This document shows, piece after piece, positions 19,554 through 27,095 of a DNA stretch of 64,000 bases (positions within the stretch are counted from its first letter, which is position 1; each line of letters begins with the position of its first letter). The notes beneath the pieces were generated by a model, which worked only from the letters and a program-made list of their open reading frames with translations, did not search any database and was not told the origin of the DNA. Both the position numbers and the translations under genes were made by a program. The stretch covers positions 1-64,000 of the forward strand of contig JAXGNR010000009.1 of the NCBI GenBank assembly GCA_040767965.1, read 5' to 3'. The stretch comes from Atribacterota bacterium (GTDB lineage: Bacteria; Atribacterota; Phoenicimicrobiia; Phoenicimicrobiales; Stramentimicrobiaceae).

Positions 19554-19853
19554 TTAACAACAAGAAGAGTTGTACCCTTCTGCATAAACCTGGAAACCTT
19601 TATTCAGGAAGAAATCCTGATAGTCAACGCTAAACCCATTGAACTGATCTGCTAAATCCTGTTCAATAACAAAATCCAGGTTTTCTATATTAATGTTTTG
19701 ATCATTGTTTTTTTGCTCATCCAGAGCAATTCCAAATCTGGGGCCTCCTCAGCCAATGCCAGTCATCATAATACGGACATTTTTGCCCTGGCCATTTTTT
19801 CCCAGCATTTCTTTTAGTTTTGCTGCTGCTTTTGCAGTAATATTAATTTTCAT
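19554..19853 (-). CDS. HesB/IscA-like selenoprotein, 99 aa, Sec at codon 35 (UGA at 19751-19749)
   Basis: Absent from the ORF track. Manual translation MKINITAKAAAKLKEMLGKNGQGKNVRIMMTGIG-U-GGPRFGIALDE...FSVDYQDFFLNKGFQVYAEGYNSSCC*. AAGGAG RBS, G-U-GGP at the IscA Cys position, and a SECIS-like hairpin downstream. Confidence 0.92.
19713..19729 (-). promoter_or_regulatory. Bacterial SECIS candidate of the HesB-like gene
   Basis: mRNA UUGCUC-UGGAU-GAGCAA. The loop begins 25 nt 3' of the UGA and contains G at position 2. Confidence 0.65.
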
Positions 19854-20085: not shown

Positions 20086-20733
20086 ATGAAAAAAAGTATT
20101 CTTTTTTTAGCCCTGCTAGCTCTGGCTAGCATGATAATGTCAGGTTGTATGTTGCCCTTTTTTGGTAACGAACCTCCTGTTATCAAGTCTAATCCACCAT
20201 CTACTGCCAAAATTGGAGACACTTACATTTACCAGGTAGATGCCACTGATGATAATGATGTATTAAAATTCAGTTTAAACAATTCTCCTGTGGGAATGAC
20301 CATGGACGATAGTGGTTTGATTGAATGGAGCCCAACTGAAGATCAGGTTGGTAATCATACCGTTCAGCTGAAAGTAAGTGATGGATGGAACAGTGTTACC
20401 CAGGAATTTACAGTAGAAGTAAAAAATATTAAGCTGGATTCCATCAGCGTTTTGCCTGAAAATATGACAATCCTAAGAGGAAGCACAGTTTCTATTACTT
20501 CTATAACTGCTCATTATGATGATGGATCCAGTGTTCAAATTTCCAAATCTGATTGTGAATATGAGTCTTCAAATGTAAATCTCGCAAGTGTTAACATATA
20601 TGGCCAGGTTGTTGGGAAAATAGCTGGAAGTGTTACTATTACTGTCAGTTACTCTGAAAATGATGTAACTGTACAAGATACAGTTTCAGTAACAGTTCAA
20701 AACCCCCCAACCGGAGGTGGCTGAGGTTCATAA
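20086..20733 (+). CDS. Surface lipoprotein with two Ig-like domains (He_PIG/cadherin-like plus Big_2). Ends at 20724 if UGA is stop, 20733 if UGA is Sec
   Basis: Lipobox IMSGC, YQVDATD..P.GM.....G.IEWSP Ig repeat, Big_2-like YESSN..ASV..G.V. The terminal TGA is followed by GGT TCA TAA TAA. Confidence 0.8.
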
Positions 20734-20738
20734 TAAAA

Positions 20739-20761
20739 AAATCTGATAGGTTATCAGATTT
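20739..20761 (+). promoter_or_regulatory. SECIS-like hairpin after the lipoprotein UGA (alternatively a terminator)
   Basis: aaatctgata-ggt-tatcagattt, a perfect 10-bp stem with GGU loop starting 24 nt after the UGA. Confidence 0.5.
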
Positions 20762-20770
20762 AGAGAAAAA

Positions 20771-20779
20771 TGATATAAT
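20771..20779 (+). promoter_or_regulatory. Extended -10 promoter for tRNA-Sec
   Basis: TGATATAAT (TGnTATAAT) about 7 nt upstream of the tRNA 5' end. Confidence 0.55.
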
Positions 20780-20785
20780 AGTACC

Positions 20786-20881
20786 GGGAGTGGATAGGTT
20801 CTGGTGGATCTTGCGGACTTCAAATCCGTTGGCGGTAATTTAAGATTACCGTGGTGGGTTCGATTCCCACCCCACCCGCCA
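20786..20881 (+). tRNA. selC: tRNA-Sec (anticodon UCA)
   Basis: 6-bp D stem aggttc/ggatct with TGGT loop, anticodon loop CTTCAAA (TCA 20820-22), long variable arm gcggtaatt/gattaccgt, GGTTCGATTCC T arm, G73 and encoded CCA, directly upstream of selA. Confidence 0.96.
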
Positions 20882-20897
20882 GTACTATATTGATATT

Positions 20898-20935
20898 TGC
20901 CCATTATTGGTATATTTTGGATACTAAGATGGGCA
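20898..20935 (+). terminator. Hairpin downstream of tRNA-Sec
   Basis: tgcccat..ttggtat / atactaa.atgggca followed by T-rich sequence. Confidence 0.45.
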
Positions 20936-21114
20936 TTTGCTATTTTTATAGATAAAATAGCAAACCAGGGAAATAACAACCCGCTTATTTTCTTATTATG
21001 TTAAAATATATAATATATCTAGAATATTAGAATATAAATATAATAAATATCTTACCCGGTAAAATAAAAAACTCCGGATTTGTATTTAAATAATTATAAA
21101 GTAATTATAATTAT

Positions 21115-22563
21115 ATGAAGAAAAAATTAAGAAAGAGAGTGTTTGTTAATTTGCATGATATGTCAGAAAATCAGCAGGAAAAATTACATGAGCAATTAGC
21201 TAAAATACCCAGCGTGGAAGAGATTTTACAGCAGGAAAATTTACAACCTCTTATCTGTCACTATTCTAGACAGATGATAACTCCCCTTGTGCGGACTGTT
21301 TTGGAAAAAGAAAGAAAATTTATTATGAGCGGAAATAAGCCAGCCACCATGCCCGAAATTATCCAAAAATGCAGTGCTTTCATTCAGCAGGAATACCAAT
21401 CTTTTCTTCGTCCTGTTATTAATGGGACAGGAGTCATATTGCATACCAATCTGGGCAGAGCAATTATTGGAGATAAATTAATGGCTCAGTCTATTGATGT
21501 AATAACAGGTTTCAGCAATCTGGAATATGATCTTTTTGATGGCAAGAGAGGGAAAAGAGGTTTTTTTGTTGAAAGAATGTTAGCTGCTTTCAGCCAGTCA
21601 GAAAACGCTCTTGTTGTAAACAATAATGCAGCAGCAGTGTATTTAATTCTAAAGGCTATGGCCAGAGACAAGGAAGTGATTATTTCCAGGGGAGAACTGG
21701 TACAGATAGGCGGTGGATTTCGAATACCTGAAATCCTGGAAGAGAGCGGTGCCATCTTAAGAGAAATTGGTACCACCAATCAGACTACATTACAGGATTA
21801 TGAAAAGGCTATAAATGGGAATACTGCCCTAATCTTAAAAGTGCATCAAAGCAACTTTTCTCAAACAGGCTTTACCCAAGAGACAACAGTAAAAGAACTT
21901 CATTTACTGGCTCGAAAATATAAGCTGCCACTGATTGTTGATTTAGGCAGCGGAACTTTTTTATCCACTGAAGATTTTCAATTACAGCATGAACCAACTG
22001 TACAGGAAAATATCCGTGCTGGAGCAGATTTAGTCTGTTTTAGTAGCGACAAATTGCTGGGAGGTCCTCAGGCAGGGATTATTTGCGGTGAAAAAGGATA
22101 TCTGAGTTTGATTAAGAAAGACCCGATGTATAGAACTTTCCGTGTTGGAAAAATCACCATGGCTTTATTGCAATTTACCTTATTGTCCTACTTACAGGGG
22201 ACTGCCCTGGAAGATTTACCGGTCTGGAAAATGATTTCTCTGCCTTTACAAAAAATAGCAAGACGGAGTCAGAATATAACTAGAAGCTTGAAAAAAAAGA
22301 ATATTCCAGTTTTCTGTCAGGATGGAGAATCGGTAGTAGGAGGAGGGTCCTTGCCTGGCAAAACTTTGCCTACCAGACTATTTTGTCTGCAAACTTCCGG
22401 TAATATTGAAAATTTAGATCAGAAGTTAAGATTATCCTATCCGGCATTATTAGGCAGGGTGCAGGATAATTTATTAATGTTTGACCCTCGAACCATTGAT
22501 CCTAAATATGATAAATTAGTAGTAGATATCATTTGCTCTGCCTATCAGGCAGAAGAAAGGTGA
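21115..22563 (+). CDS. selA: L-seryl-tRNA(Sec) selenium transferase (start may be further downstream, e.g. ATG 21160)
   Basis: VINGTGVILHTNLGRA, VNNNAAA, ISRGELVQIGGGFRIP, DLGSG, DKLLGGPQAG. Confidence 0.97.
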   Translation: MKKKLRKRVFVNLHDMSENQQEKLHEQLAKIPSVEEILQQENLQPLICHYSRQMITPLVRTVLEKERKFIMSGNKPATMPEIIQKCSAFIQQEYQSFLRPVINGTGVILHTNLGRAIIGDKLMAQSIDVITGFSNLEYDLFDGKRGKRGFFVERMLAAFSQSENALVVNNNAAAVYLILKAMARDKEVIISRGELVQIGGGFRIPEILEESGAILREIGTTNQTTLQDYEKAINGNTALILKVHQSNFSQTGFTQETTVKELHLLARKYKLPLIVDLGSGTFLSTEDFQLQHEPTVQENIRAGADLVCFSSDKLLGGPQAGIICGEKGYLSLIKKDPMYRTFRVGKITMALLQFTLLSYLQGTALEDLPVWKMISLPLQKIARRSQNITRSLKKKNIPVFCQDGESVVGGGSLPGKTLPTRLFCLQTSGNIENLDQKLRLSYPALLGRVQDNLLMFDPRTIDPKYDKLVVDIICSAYQAEER

Positions 22564-22576
22564 AAAATAATTTAAA

Positions 22577-24448
22577 ATGATAATATTTGGCACAGCCGGC
22601 CATATTGATCATGGCAAAACTACCTTAATCCAGGCTATAACCGGAATAGATGCTGACCGTTTGCCGGAAGAAAAAGAAAGAGGAATGACTATAGATTTAG
22701 GCTTTGCCTGGCTGGAAGTGGAAAATGGTGAAAAAATTGGTATCATAGATGTACCTGGGCATGAAAATTTTATCAGGAATACTATTATTGGTCTGACTTC
22801 AGTTGATGCTTTTATTCTGGTGGTAGATGCGAAAGAAGGGTGGAAACCTCAAACTGAAGAACACTTTCAGATTATCCGTTTATTAGGGATCAGCCAAGGC
22901 ATTATTGCAATTACCAAAGCTGACCTGGTTTCTCAAAAGGAGATTGTCCAGGTACAAGAGGTAATTCAAAATAAAATTTCCAATAGCGATTATTTTTACA
23001 TACCTGTTCTCTCCTTCAGCAGCAAAGACGCTGACAGTATTGCACAATTAAAAAAACAGATTGCAGAAATAAGCCTGATTGTTCCTGCAAAGAAAAATCT
23101 GGAAAAGCCCAGATTGTTTATTGATAGAGTATTTGACATCAAAGGTAGCGGTACAGTGGTAACCGGTACCCTATTAAATGGGAATTTTTCTCAAAATCAA
23201 TATGCCCAGCTTTTTCCTTTAAAAAGAAGAATTCGCTTAAGGCAGTTGCAAAGTTATGGAGTTCAGGTAGAAAAAGCCCTCCTGGGCAGTCGGGTAGCCA
23301 TCAATATCTCTGGTGCCAAAAAAGAGGAGATAAATAGAGGCGATTTAATCTATTCCGGTCAACCTTGTGCTAGCGGCAGAATTATTGATGCAGAACTAAT
23401 CCTTCCACAGCAAAAAGAAGAATATACCTTAAAAAATGGTTTTGAGGTTGATTTTATTTCCCATACCAAGCTCTTGCGGGGAAGAGTTATTTTACCGGCA
23501 GGTTCATTGAATTCTGGTGAAAAATCCTTTGTTCAGATTCGTTTTCCGGAAGACCTCAGTTTGATGATCGGGGATTACTTTATAATTCGCTTACCTGGAG
23601 TGAATAAGACTCTTGGCGGAGGAAGAATTTTAGACCCACTAGCATTCAAACATAGTTTCAAGAAAAAAACCTGGCAGGATTGGTTGACAAAAAGAAAAAC
23701 ACTGGAGGTCAGGCAGGTTATTCTAACAGAAATTGAAAAATATCATCTGGCAAAACAAAATAATTTTTTGGCGAATGCTCCTTTTTCAGCTGAAGAAATA
23801 ACACAACAGATATTATTACTTCACAAAACCGAATGCCTGATTCTGCTGGCAGACTGGATTGTAGAGAAAGAATTCTGGTCAGAGCAAATCCAGAAAATAA
23901 CTGATTCTGTAAAAAAACTGCATCAGGAAAACCCTTTTCAGGAAAGCTTCCCGATAATTCAGGTAAAAAATTATTTACCTGATTTGACTGATGATTTTTT
24001 TGCAGGCATGCTGGATTTTCTTGCTGGAAATAAAAAGATAAAATTTTCCAGCGGCAGAATTTCTGGTTTTGAACATAGTATTTCTTTAACCAATGTACAA
24101 AAAGACACTTCTTCCAGAATAATCAGGTTTATAGAAGAAGATCCGCAGCGTTTGCCTACCAGAAAACTGTTAGAGGGAAAATTTCCTCTAGATTCTAGGC
24201 TTATTAAATACCTTTTGGATAGCCAGAAGATAATAGTATTAGAAGATGATATAATGATAACGCCAGCAATATACCGAAAAATGAAAGACCAGATAGTACA
24301 GTTTCTGCAGCAAAATGGCAGCATCAATATAGGACAGGTGAGGGACTTATTAAATGTCAGCCGAAAATATATAGTACCTTTATTGACAAAAATGGACCAG
24401 GAAGGTATAACAGTCAGAAAGGAAAATCAAAGATTCTTAAGAAAATAA
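22577..24448 (+). CDS. selB: Selenocysteine-specific elongation factor
   Basis: GTAGHIDHGKT, RGMTIDLGF, DVPGHE, C-terminal winged helix SRKYIVPLL. Confidence 0.97.
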   Translation: MIIFGTAGHIDHGKTTLIQAITGIDADRLPEEKERGMTIDLGFAWLEVENGEKIGIIDVPGHENFIRNTIIGLTSVDAFILVVDAKEGWKPQTEEHFQIIRLLGISQGIIAITKADLVSQKEIVQVQEVIQNKISNSDYFYIPVLSFSSKDADSIAQLKKQIAEISLIVPAKKNLEKPRLFIDRVFDIKGSGTVVTGTLLNGNFSQNQYAQLFPLKRRIRLRQLQSYGVQVEKALLGSRVAINISGAKKEEINRGDLIYSGQPCASGRIIDAELILPQQKEEYTLKNGFEVDFISHTKLLRGRVILPAGSLNSGEKSFVQIRFPEDLSLMIGDYFIIRLPGVNKTLGGGRILDPLAFKHSFKKKTWQDWLTKRKTLEVRQVILTEIEKYHLAKQNNFLANAPFSAEEITQQILLLHKTECLILLADWIVEKEFWSEQIQKITDSVKKLHQENPFQESFPIIQVKNYLPDLTDDFFAGMLDFLAGNKKIKFSSGRISGFEHSISLTNVQKDTSSRIIRFIEEDPQRLPTRKLLEGKFPLDSRLIKYLLDSQKIIVLEDDIMITPAIYRKMKDQIVQFLQQNGSINIGQVRDLLNVSRKYIVPLLTKMDQEGITVRKENQRFLRK

Positions 24449-24480
24449 CCGGAAGTATTTTCCAGAAAGAGGTGAGCTAG

Positions 24481-25524
24481 ATGGCTGATAAAAAGAAATT
24501 GATTCAGCTGGCATCAGCAGCTGGCTGAGCAGCAAAATTGAGTTATCAGGACCTCGGTGAGGTTCTTAAAAAATTTAATCATATTACAGATAAGAATTTA
24601 TTAAGCGGTTTTGAATATTATGAGGATGCGGCTGTTTATCGGATAAGTGAGGATAATGCAGTTATTTTTACAGTGGATTTTATTACACCTATTGTAAATA
24701 ATCCTTATACTTTTGGTAAAATTGCTGCTGCAAATGCCTTAAGTGATGTGTTTGCCATGGGAGGAAAACCCTTATTGGCTTTAAATATTGTCTGCTTTCC
24801 GGCTGACCGACTTTGTGATTTAGATGAAGTTATCAAGGGTGGCCTGGAAAAAGTACAGGAAGCAGGGGCTTTCCTGGTTGGAGGGCATAGCATAAAAGAT
24901 AATGAGCCGAAATATGGGTTAGCAGTCCTGGGATTGGTGCATCCGGAAAAGGTCATTAAAAATCATACTCCTCAGGAAGGAGATTATCTGATACTTACAA
25001 AGCCACTGGGAACAGGTATAATTTCTACTGCTCTGAAAGCAGAATTGCTGAATGAAGAGGAAGCCCAGGATGCTATCAGATGGATGTCTTCTTTAAATGA
25101 TATCAGCGATTGTTTTTCCCGATTATCAATCCACAGTATGACCGATATTACTGGATTTGGTTTTTTAGGGCATTTATCTGAAATGATGAGTAACAGCGAT
25201 TTAGTTGCAGAGATTCGGGTAAAAGAAGTTCCTGTACTTGAAAAGGCTTCTTTTTTTGCTGAACAGGATATTATTCCAGGAGGAAGCATAAGCAATAAAA
25301 ATATTTTTTCCTGTGGAGTTGAAAAAAATAATACTGTTGACCCTATTAAAGAAATAATCATGTATGATGCTCAAACTTCCGGTGGATTGCTTATAGCGCT
25401 TGCAGAAGAAGAAGCAAAAAAAGCTTTAGGCATGTTGCACAAACAAGGATTTGCTGCAAGCAAAATAGTAGGTCGGATCAGAAGAAGAAATTCTGATGAA
25501 AACAAAAAAATACATCTGTTCTAA
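24481..25524 (+). CDS. selD: Selenophosphate synthetase, selenoprotein form (Sec at codon 16, UGA 24526-24528)
   Basis: True start ATG 24481 with GAGGTG RBS: MADKKKLIQLASAAG-U-AAKL. EDAAVY, TVDF, AANALSD, GGHS, LTKPLG, TDITGFG, DAQTSGGLL. Confidence 0.96.
24548..24566 (+). promoter_or_regulatory. SECIS element of selD
   Basis: aggacctc-ggt-gaggttct, an 8-bp stem (one G-U) with GGU loop 27 nt after the UGA. Confidence 0.75.
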
Positions 25525-25656: not shown

Positions 25657-26709
25657 ATGCAAAAAAAAGGATTTATATTTTTAATTTTACTCATAATCGC
25701 ATCTTTTATAGGAATAGGCTATTATATCAATAGCCTTACCAGTCAATATGCTGGTCCGCCTACCCTTGTTGTTTCAGAAGAAATAGGAGATTTAGGAGCA
25801 ATAAAAGCTGATATTGAACAAACATACACTTTTACCTTAAAAAATACTGGTGGAGAAACCTTGATTATAGAACGAGTGCAGGCACCATGTGGATGTACTG
25901 CAACTTTATTATCTGAAGAAGAAATAATGCCCGGACAAACAGCCCAGCTGGAGGTTACTTTTAATCCCAGAGGGTATCAGGGAATAGTTACCCAGTCAGT
26001 TTATATTTACAGTAATGATCCGGAAAACGAGAGAAAAAGAATTGCTATCACCGCTGATGTAGAGCATATCCCTGCTGCTAAAATAGATATATCAACAAGC
26101 AATTGGGATTTAGGTTTAATTACAAAAGGTGAAACTGCTCAAATGGAATTTACTTTGGGGAATAAGGGAGATGCCGAATTTATTCTAGAAAGCGTAGAAA
26201 TGCCAGAATATATAAACTATGAAGATACTGGCATTCAGTTCCCGGTTACTTTAAATCCTGAAACAGAACTAAAATTCAATTTTACCTATAATTCAAGCAA
26301 AATGGAAACAGGTATAATAAGAGATCATATTCGATTTGTTACAAGTGATGCCAGCAGGAGAAATATTACTCTAAGAATAGAAGGTTATGTAAAAGAACAG
26401 GAAAAAGCTCTTCTTATCTATCCTTCCCAGGATATTTTGGTTACAACTACTGATGAGAAAGAAATTTATGAAGCTAAATATATCTTTAAAAACAACAGTG
26501 ATAAGACAATTAAGTTAATCAGCATAGAAACAGCAGTTGATTATCTTGAAGTAACTCCAATTACTTTTGTGCTGGACCCTGGAGCCGAACAGGAGATAAC
26601 CATTCAAACTGCCAAACAGGACATTGCCGACTTGTTCATCAGTGAAAAGATTCAGGAAAGCATTTATTTAAATATTGCATTACCTATCAATATCAGCCCG
26701 GAAATTTAA
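25657..26709 (+). CDS. DUF1573 (Ig-like) domain membrane-anchored protein
   Basis: N-terminal TM, F.LKNTG..L.I..V..PCGCT, repeated Ig-like beta units. Confidence 0.8.
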   Translation: MQKKGFIFLILLIIASFIGIGYYINSLTSQYAGPPTLVVSEEIGDLGAIKADIEQTYTFTLKNTGGETLIIERVQAPCGCTATLLSEEEIMPGQTAQLEVTFNPRGYQGIVTQSVYIYSNDPENERKRIAITADVEHIPAAKIDISTSNWDLGLITKGETAQMEFTLGNKGDAEFILESVEMPEYINYEDTGIQFPVTLNPETELKFNFTYNSSKMETGIIRDHIRFVTSDASRRNITLRIEGYVKEQEKALLIYPSQDILVTTTDEKEIYEAKYIFKNNSDKTIKLISIETAVDYLEVTPITFVLDPGAEQEITIQTAKQDIADLFISEKIQESIYLNIALPINISPEI

Positions 26710-26741: not shown

Positions 26742-27095
26742 ATGGATTGCATGGAAGAATATCTGAAAATATTTAGCGCGTTATCGGATCAGACCAGATT
26801 GCGTATTTATATGATACTGGCAGAAGGAGAACTTTGTGTATGCGAACTTACCTGTGCTTTAAAAATGGAACAATCTAGGATTTCCCATAGTTTAAAAATC
26901 CTGAGAGAAGCAGGGTTAATAATCTCCCGTAAAATTGGCAAATGGAATTTTTATTCAATCCCGGAAAACAAAAACCGACAATGGCTTTTTGAAGGTATTA
27001 TGGATAATGTCCAGATTTTGCAGAAAGATAAGAAACGCCTGCAAAGATGTAAAGACATAAATATTAGAGAAAAATGTAATTGTCAGATATGTTAA
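26742..27095 (+). CDS. ArsR/SmtB family regulator
   Basis: ALSDQTRLRI, ELCVCEL, QSRISHSL..L..AGL, Cys-rich tail CNCQIC. Confidence 0.9.
   Translation: MDCMEEYLKIFSALSDQTRLRIYMILAEGELCVCELTCALKMEQSRISHSLKILREAGLIISRKIGKWNFYSIPENKNRQWLFEGIMDNVQILQKDKKRLQRCKDINIREKCNCQIC

Follow-up and report, generated by a model that had tools for sequence, protein, structure and literature searches.

A lipoprotein gene located directly upstream of the selenocysteine (Sec) genes of an Atribacterota bacterium is, judging from the comparison of its sequence with those of its relatives, very likely a genuine selenoprotein gene whose apparent stop codon, UGA, is decoded as Sec. The gene lies on the forward strand of a 64,000-nucleotide (nt) stretch of DNA (assembly GCA_040767965.1, contig JAXGNR010000009.1, positions 1 to 64,000; hereafter the window, to which all coordinates refer), and its conventional open reading frame, 20086-20724, encodes 212 amino acids and terminates with the TGA at 20722-24. 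An earlier note, made from the letters of the window alone, had pointed out that GGT TCA and two TAA codons come after this TGA in the same frame, that a perfect 10-base-pair (bp) hairpin with a GGT loop places its loop 24 nt after the UGA, and that the gene sits between a HesB-like selenoprotein gene and selC-selA-selB-selD; all of this was confirmed in the sequence and its coordinates (Table 1), with the hairpin arms being aaatctgata (20739-48) and tatcagattt (20752-61) around the loop at 20749-51. It is important to note that the feature is not beyond chance in the window sequence alone and that its significance comes from the comparison with relatives. There, the proposal of a new selenoprotein found support in a conserved TGA, a covarying hairpin, an occurrence limited to genomes that encode SelB, and linkage to the sel genes.

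Homologues were searched in six frames, in 61 related genomes and then in 86 genomes of the phylum, with full-length matches at E ≤ 1e-28, and the 3' ends were read in 40 complete copies from 30 genomes. Tandem and dispersed paralogues are among these copies, whose identity to the window protein is 35-60%; two further copies that are cut by contig ends are outside these 40. The terminal codon of the homologues, which the earlier note had proposed to inspect, is not a mixture of TAA, TAG and TGA: the first in-frame stop is TGA in 40/40 complete copies. The residues preceding it are GGG in 20 copies and SGG in 11, with the remainder being similar, and the extension that follows it is 1-6 codons long, apart from one copy with 11, and amounts to exactly two residues in 16 of the 40. 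The true stop after the extension is TAA in 36 copies, TGA in three and TAG in one. Two neighboring genes in these loci served as controls: selD finally stops with TAA in 12 cases and with TAG in one, and the HesB-like gene with TAA in 14 cases, TGA in one and TAG in one. Further, the UGA is succeeded by a GGN codon in 24 copies and by a CCN codon in six, with a varying third base, and the Gly codons that precede the UGA also differ at the third base among homologues; such third-base variation around the UGA is the pattern expected of translated sequence. Gene callers miss the short tail, as had been anticipated: among 56 family-sized clusters of the protein databases, 52 end at the UGA. The endings are …G in 45 clusters and …GST in seven, while in three clusters the TGA is rendered as W, with 2-4 residues after it, and one (P0213) ends …LPCNE and is, by its sequence, probably cut at the same UGA.

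In bacteria, the hairpin that SelB recognizes by its apical part, the Sec insertion sequence (SECIS), stands at a set distance 3' of the UGA and need not be translated; bSECISearch looks for a loop 16-37 nt after the UGA with a G early in the apical loop. A hairpin follows the UGA in all 40 copies, with a UGA-to-loop distance of 19-27 nt (21 nt in 21/40), stems of 5-10 bp (at least 6 bp in 39/40) and G as the first loop base in 39/40; the loops are GUU in 26 copies, GGU in 10, and GUC, GGC, AGUUG and one weak case in the others. This geometry agrees with bSECISearch-type criteria. The position of the hairpin follows the UGA and not the true stop, which shifts. In an alignment of 32 copies, 94.1% of the stem cells are paired vs. 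at most 45.3% when the partners are slid, compensatory changes are found in five of the eight pairs, and 0/500 shuffles reach the covariation score. The two-sided changes include CUGAUA/UAUCAG, CCGGUA/UACCGG, CCAGUA/UACUGG and CCGAUA/UAUCGG, and eight further copies outside this alignment add CCGGCA/UGCCGG and UUGGCA/UGCCAA. Hence, the conservation of the hairpin among homologues, on which the earlier note had made its proposal depend, is seen at a constrained distance and with compensatory changes. The undoubted SECIS of selD in this clade, found in 13 loci of one of the two carrier families (f2, below) and in the window, has a stem of 8 bp and a GG[U/G/C] triloop that lies 27 nt past the UGA, and the similar build of the hairpin discussed here counts for its identity as a SECIS. 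Both comparisons drawn previously within the window stand, namely with the GGU loop of the selD SECIS and with the UGGAU loop, which contains GG, of the HesB-like SECIS, at a distance of 25 nt from its UGA. With a covariance model built on the UGA and hairpin together, the site scores 58.5 bits and the next best site of the window genome 17.5 bits; no second copy was found there by this model, which indicates that the hairpin is not a repeat element.

Members of the Atribacterota are mostly uncultured and occur in sediments, landfills and digesters. The gene was found in 31/86 genomes of the phylum, all within two families (f1 and f2) of one order, i.e., in 15/21 f1 genomes plus the window's own genome and in 15/30 f2 genomes, and in 0/34 genomes of the other families. 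True SelB, as distinguished from matches at the level of EF-Tu, is encoded by 40 of the 52 f1 and f2 genomes; the 31 carriers all belong to this group, and the gene was found in none of the 12 SelB-free f1/f2 genomes. SelB was absent from nine tested genomes of other families. Since the f1 and f2 genomes are mutually related and many are incomplete, the co-occurrence with SelB should be read as a pattern and not as a statistic. Two peptide patterns applied to about 185,000 species genomes gave full-length matches in Atribacterota only. In f1, the gene order is gene-selC-selA-selB-selD, with tRNA-Sec directly downstream in 13/15 f1 loci (13/30 homologous loci overall) and, in the window, all of selA, selB, selC and selD present directly downstream of the lipoprotein gene; in f2, the order is selB-selD-gene-HesB-like. 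The gene is, therefore, both restricted to SelB-bearing genomes and linked to sel genes, which is how the check on sel-positive genomes suggested in the earlier note turned out. Contigs assembled from metatranscriptome RNA libraries of anaerobic digesters cover the gene in 4/4 runs from two studies; one of them spans 20181-20789 without a difference, and another, from a related strain, continues through the hairpin into tRNA-Sec. These contigs give a weak indication that the gene is expressed, given that DNA carry-over is possible and that contigs are blind to transcript ends, and stretches without contig cover, e.g., 20925-21095, carry no information.

A related form with cysteines in the tail exists as well. 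This is a shorter lipoprotein with a single Big_2 domain, 57-60% identical in that domain, which ends …CGCGG and stops with TAA in both of the loci read at the DNA level (2/2); 22 database clusters end …CGCGG, and none of the 61 related genomes has the short form. The pattern is complementary, in that a Cys-bearing short-form tail goes with TAA and a tail without Cys goes with TGA. Two short-form clusters (P0250 and P0252) end …ITGG, three residues before the end of their …CGCGG siblings, and may represent Sec forms of the short subfamily. Of the Cys homologues that had been expected, the exact GGGCGS form was not found; the Cys-tail form is a related one. A profile search of 1.8 billion proteins with the 32-sequence alignment of the family (A2) returned giant He_PIG repeat proteins as its best 150 matches, which are useless for identifying Cys forms.

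Several observations weigh against UGA decoding, and a number of them would fit the alternative that the TGA is an ordinary stop, that the protein ends …GGG, and that the hairpin is another kind of 3' element (related to transcript end or stability, a weak terminator, or the promoter of the next gene). First, the single-sequence statistics are unremarkable: TGA ends 186 of the 1257 frames of at least 250 codons in the window genome (14.8%, at 32.8% G+C), the next in-frame stop is at most six codons away in 95 of these 186, and the 91-nt fold at the site has z = -1.23, with 21/200 shuffles folding as well or better. Second, no Cys was found in the exact Sec column among the 40 DNA copies and the 56 protein clusters; when the Cys forms are aligned by their stops, their TAA occupies the UGA column and their cysteines lie three and five residues earlier. 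Third, in one copy (L042), the stem is weak, at only 4 bp, and the extension runs to 11 codons. Fourth, the 3' arm of the hairpin overlaps the promoter-like -35 element of selC in f1, a second possible constraint on its sequence; in the window, the -35 hexamer of the region's highest-ranking promoter-like site, which directly precedes tRNA-Sec, falls in this arm. Fifth, a homologous hairpin also follows the TAA-ended Cys-tail genes, nearer to the stop and with AGU and GAU loops that fall outside G[G/U]U (n = 2); this hairpin may be a fossil SECIS or a stem with a second, Sec-independent role. Sixth, an Rfam scan of 15-30 kb at E ≤ 10 gave tRNA-Sec only and no SECIS match; the scan was silent on the SECIS of selD, too, and is thus uninformative. 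Finally, the RNA-library contigs of two runs end 18-28 nt past the hairpin, which is a weak hint in favor of an ordinary stop.

An ordinary stop, however, would leave most of the comparative data unexplained. It offers no reason for the use of TGA in every complete copy when TAA is found in about nine cases out of ten both in the neighboring genes and at the second stop of the family itself, for a UGA-to-loop distance that stays fixed while the true stop shifts by 1-6 codons, for a G[G/U]U loop in common with the selD SECIS, for the restriction to SelB-bearing genomes, or for the appearance of TAA exactly when the tail has cysteines. Moreover, the hairpin is kept in f1, in f2 and in the paralogues, although each of these has other genes downstream. 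A terminator, which the earlier note had itself raised as the alternative, is not indicated: the scan for intrinsic terminators flags the hairpin on neither strand, its stem holds two G-C pairs, and the f2 hairpins are followed by A-rich sequence with no T run. Based on these data, we consider an ordinary stop improbable.

Alternatively, the hairpin might be a SECIS-like SelB-binding site that regulates the adjacent sel genes, with the UGA not being productively decoded. A site of this kind is present in the leader of the E. coli selAB operon, and both the SECIS-like shape of the hairpin and its position directly upstream of selC-selA-selB-selD in f1 would be consistent with such a role. Yet in f2, the element sits after selD and before the HesB-like gene, in the paralogues it is found elsewhere (behind ACR3 or between Memo-like and DUF498 genes), and an invariant in-frame UGA 19-27 nt upstream would be needless for mere binding, which makes this explanation very improbable in our view. 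Reading of TGA as a sense codon for Gly or Trp in this lineage (tail …GGGGGS or …GGGWGS) would agree with the position of the codon within a Gly run and with the W found in the database translations of clusters P0007, P0011, P0208, P0257 and P0260, but we give it practically no credence, given that genetic code table 11 leaves the helicase, selA and selB intact, the stop of selA is itself TGA, 186 long frames end in TGA, and a full Sec system with a UCA-anticodon tRNA is encoded.

Under the selenoprotein interpretation, SelB loaded with Sec-tRNA(Sec) would be recruited by the hairpin at 20739-61 and decode the UGA at 20722-24, with the SECIS lying wholly beyond the true stop, in the 3' untranslated region (UTR); after Sec, Gly and Ser would be added and translation would terminate at the TAA. 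The product would be exported and lipid-anchored at Cys21, presenting a lone selenol on a disordered tail, three residues from its end. If, instead, release factor wins at the UGA, the same folded protein would be made minus its last three residues and without the selenol. That is, because release at the UGA gives a selenol-free protein, the selenium-bearing fraction should depend on selenium supply.

The description of the product as an immunoglobulin (Ig)-domain surface lipoprotein held up, based on a lipobox, Pfam matches to He_PIG and Big_2, and a two-domain structural model. The AlphaFold model, built with 32 homologues, has a mean predicted local distance difference test (pLDDT) score of 91 and consists of two beta-sandwich domains followed, from residue 206 on, by a tail of low confidence; in a Foldseek search of the PDB, the Big_2 domain of LigA was best and cadherins also matched, these being generic tandem Ig matches only. 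The lipobox was identified from the sequence and its conservation, with G20 and C21 invariant in the smaller alignment A3. One paralogue group lacks the lipobox Cys. In loci of the genus g4 (L012, L010 and L014), an upstream tandem paralogue ending …FGGG-U-PAKK (U denoting Sec) has a plain hydrophobic N-terminus without the lipobox Cys, and it retains Cys157, the UGA and the hairpin. A divergent subgroup of tandem pairs (L041 and L105, G039:C3; L015, G034:C13) has tails …GDD-U-W, …GDT-U-M and …CDT-U-W, the last of which, in one copy, forms a CxxU motif with both Cys and Sec.

Beyond the fold, only Cys157 and U213 are invariant and chemically special in A2. Cys157 was considered as a partner specific to the Sec tail, and this candidate is weakened by its presence in longer relatives that lack a Sec tail: an equivalent Cys is found in their Big_2 domain in 7/7 covering alignments, often with a second Cys about nine residues after it. 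In other longer relatives without the Gly tail end (clusters P0014, P0015 and P0172-P0175), it is absent. A selenenylsulfide between Cys157 and Sec is possible but unsupported.

A hint at function comes from a third paralogue group (…YIPGGGG-U-GS), whose gene immediately follows one for the arsenite efflux protein ACR3 (TIGR00832, 381-382 bits, the cut-off being 282.8). One genome has, in this order, genes for an ArsP_1-type permease, thioredoxin, a DsbD_TM/CcdA-like protein, ACR3 and the paralogue; a second has those for ACR3, a radical SAM/SPASM protein (best match to the tungsten-cofactor oxidoreductase maturase model TIGR04317, 299 bits vs. a cut-off of 380), the paralogue, and a thioredoxin-type arsenate reductase (158.7 bits vs. 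a cut-off of 174.3). These two genomes belong to one genus, and a metagenome contig with a 73%-identical paralogue likewise has ACR3 upstream. The Cys-tail lipoprotein occupies the same slot on one contig, which carries CDF, AhpC/TSA-like, thioredoxin, DsbD_TM, ACR3 and lipoprotein genes. Looking across loci (L103, G015:C12:7500-16500; L104, G019:C17:1-6000; L117), an operon of membrane-anchored thioredoxin, DsbD_TM/CcdA-like protein, ACR3 and a Sec- or Cys-tail Big_2 lipoprotein recurs.

This neighborhood of ACR3, thioredoxin and CcdA, together with that of the sel genes, suggests work in metalloid binding or envelope redox chemistry, and the tail chalcogen would be the conserved working part of the protein. 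The roles floated in the earlier note, i.e., selenium or metal capture and redox chemistry, gain some indirect support from the surroundings of the paralogue. As a tentative proposal that we hold at somewhat less than even chances, the tethered selenol might bind or transfer soft metalloids, i.e., selenium in the case of the sel-linked orthologue and arsenite in the case of the ACR3-linked paralogue, or engage in selenenylsulfide exchange; in the operon of the paralogue, the selenol would be kept reduced by the CcdA-like membrane protein and the membrane-anchored thioredoxin. It is intriguing to go further and hypothesize that the lipid-anchored selenol captures metalloids outside the cytoplasm, so that the sel-linked protein would serve in selenium acquisition or hand-over, as a counterpart in principle to extracellular selenium carriers, and the ACR3-linked one would trap or chaperone arsenite and be kept reduced by CcdA and thioredoxin, with the armed fraction reporting the selenium supply as a built-in feedback. 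We regard this fuller scenario as rather unlikely. Two findings count against these functional proposals in particular: the ACR3 linkage concerns the paralogue and not the window gene (the ACR3 gene of the window genome is on another contig, C6:46546-47661), and Cys157 is, as described above, shared with relatives that have no Sec tail.

To our knowledge, nearly every bacterial selenoprotein described so far is an enzyme or a redox protein of the thioredoxin fold, with Sec in the active site and the SECIS within the reading frame. The family described here would depart from this, as a non-enzymatic exported Ig-domain lipoprotein with Sec on a disordered tail, a SECIS past the stop and almost no Cys forms, and it is missing from current inventories. 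In line with the earlier note, whose author knew of no described family with such an architecture, Table 1 of a 2026 review, which lists 119 prokaryotic selenoprotein families, includes no Ig-domain, He_PIG or Big_2 lipoprotein (PMC13188914). Term searches in the main texts of the deep-Sep and BSepDB papers gave no match, and a full-text literature search on selenoproteins of Atribacter, Cloacimonadota and Cloacimonas and on related phrases found no paper on such a family. No NCBIfam model (June 2026) matched the window protein above its cut-off, the matches to lipo-invert and choice-of-anchor Z PGGG being far below theirs; a literature search on these two domains turned up no paper.

A near-C-terminal Sec with a SECIS behind the stop does have precedents in SaoC, KCU-star and UXX-star proteins; therefore, the decoding mechanism is of a known kind, and what is new is the protein class, its location and the near-absence of Cys forms. 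In the SaoC section of a preprint by Haft & Gwadz, the UGA of the Sec forms of SaoC (NF040734) is succeeded at once by UAG and then, in the 3' UTR, by a hairpin of 7 bp whose loop is GGU; as described there, SaoC resembles the window protein in being exported, mostly as a lipoprotein, with functional chalcogens at the extreme C-terminus and with its gene near transporters. The ArsP_1-type permease encoded beside the paralogue also scores weakly against SaoE (120 bits vs. a cut-off of 325). The two families differ, however, in that there is no sequence relationship between them (NF040734 gave no match at E ≤ 1), SaoC ends CC or CU with Cys forms dominant whereas the window family has a lone Sec after Gly-Gly, followed by 1-6 residues, with Sec forms dominant, and the window family has two Ig-like domains and a sel-gene or ACR3 neighborhood. 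The UXX-star (NF041114, NF041211) and KCU-star (NF033934) selenoproteins, as tabulated in the same review (PMC13188914), likewise have Sec a few residues from the C-terminus, so that their SECIS has to lie beyond the stop, and the GxGU motif of NF041211 resembles the GGGU of the window protein. Nevertheless, the UXX-star models are about 70 positions long, their names (gluta_UXX_star_1/_2) suggest a glutaredoxin-like fold, and they gave no match to the window protein at E ≤ 1; NF041211 found nothing in the window genome, NF041114 matched on another contig only (26 bits), and the 1-6 residue variation of the extension sets the window family apart.

More distant parallels exist among eukaryotic proteins. 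Eukaryotic thioredoxin reductase ends in Gly-Cys-Sec-Gly. The membrane-anchored selenoprotein S has a penultimate Sec that is said to pair with Cys174 (PMC3628699). In these larger or membrane-tethered proteins, a selenol is carried on a mobile, Gly-rich C-terminal tail, and termination at the UGA yields a near full-length product, as would be the case for the window protein; in contrast, they depend on a eukaryotic SECIS and SBP2, are cytosolic or located in the endoplasmic reticulum, have a vicinal or nearby partner Cys, and are non-homologous, whereas the window protein is without an established partner Cys. The DUF1573/OS_HP2 family (PF07610), listed with a UGC motif in the table of the review (PMC13188914), is alike in being exported, with an Ig-like fold and a Sec/Cys motif (UGC/CGC), and the Cys-tail relatives described above carry CGC as the Cys forms of DUF1573/OS_HP2 do; its motif, however, is within the N-terminal part of the domain and not on a C-terminal tail, and the window gene has no PF07610 match. 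The window also encodes, directly after selD (25657-26709, +), a DUF1573/HYDIN-like protein that combines an Ig domain, a signal anchor and a CGC motif (PF07610, 118 bits; NCBIfam OS_HP2 (seleno)protein, 83 bits, below the cut-off of 100), which is a Cys form of this known UGC selenoprotein family.

With all 56 clusters truncated or misread, the family has been invisible in databases, which suggests a systematic blind spot for selenoproteins of the tail type in searches that demand an extended open frame downstream of the UGA. The ties to the sel operon and to the arsenite pump provide a handle on how anaerobes deal with selenium and arsenic outside the cytoplasm and how selenium is delivered to SelD.

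Table 1. Features of the lipoprotein locus and adjacent Sec genes, in window coordinates.
Feature	Position	Strand	Evidence or remark
HesB-like selenoprotein gene	19554..19853	-	conserved neighbor, 17/30 homologous loci
Predicted selenoprotein coding sequence	20086..20733	+	215 codons with UGA as Sec, plus TAA stop; homologues in 31/86 phylum genomes
Signal peptide and lipobox (…IMSG-C21)	20086..20148	+	read from sequence; model helix residues 2-18
First Ig-like domain (He_PIG / Big_9), residues 30-112	20173..20421	+	Pfam PF05345, 43.7 bits vs. cut-off 24; modeled beta strands, pLDDT ~90-97
Second Ig-like domain (Big_2)	20437..20700	+	Pfam PF02368, 25.7 bits vs. cut-off 22.8, residues 118-191; model strands to residue 205
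Cys157 codon	20554..20556	+	invariant column, alignment A2 (32 sequences)
Disordered Gly/Pro tail, QNPPTGGG-U-GS	20701..20730	+	last model block pLDDT 57
UGA as probable selenocysteine, U213	20722..20724	+	TGA in 40/40 complete copies; invariant in A2
True stops, TAA TAA	20731..20736	+	in frame after GGT TCA
Probable SECIS hairpin in 3' UTR	20739..20761	+	10-bp stem, GGU loop; covariation on 32 homologues; covariance model 58.5 bits
Promoter-like site for tRNA-Sec, TTATCA-17-TATAAT	20751..20779	+	consensus match only; 10/12 matches, TG before -10
selC (tRNA-Sec)	20785..20880	+	ARAGORN; Rfam RF01852, 66.5 bits; UCA anticodon
selA	21115-22563	+	in block 21115..25524
selB	22577-24448	+	in block 21115..25524
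selD	24481-25524	+	Sec codon at 24526-28; in block 21115..25524

A few further features of these loci were noted. The f1 relatives, inspected by eye, show the same overlap of promoter-like site and hairpin before tRNA-Sec. In f2, an A-rich …cctttcta(t/a)aa… recurs 10-60 nt past the hairpin (L016, L020, L021, L023 and L026), and several loci have a conserved stretch, …tagggacacatccc…, downstream of the hairpin; these short stretches may be the promoter of the HesB-like gene or a repeat. Within the window, selA stops with TGA, followed by three in-frame sense codons and a stop (22561-22575), an ordinary instance of how common such an arrangement is. Finally, two genes past selD (26742-27095, +), an ArsR/SmtB metalloregulator with a CVC motif is encoded (NF033788, 90 bits).

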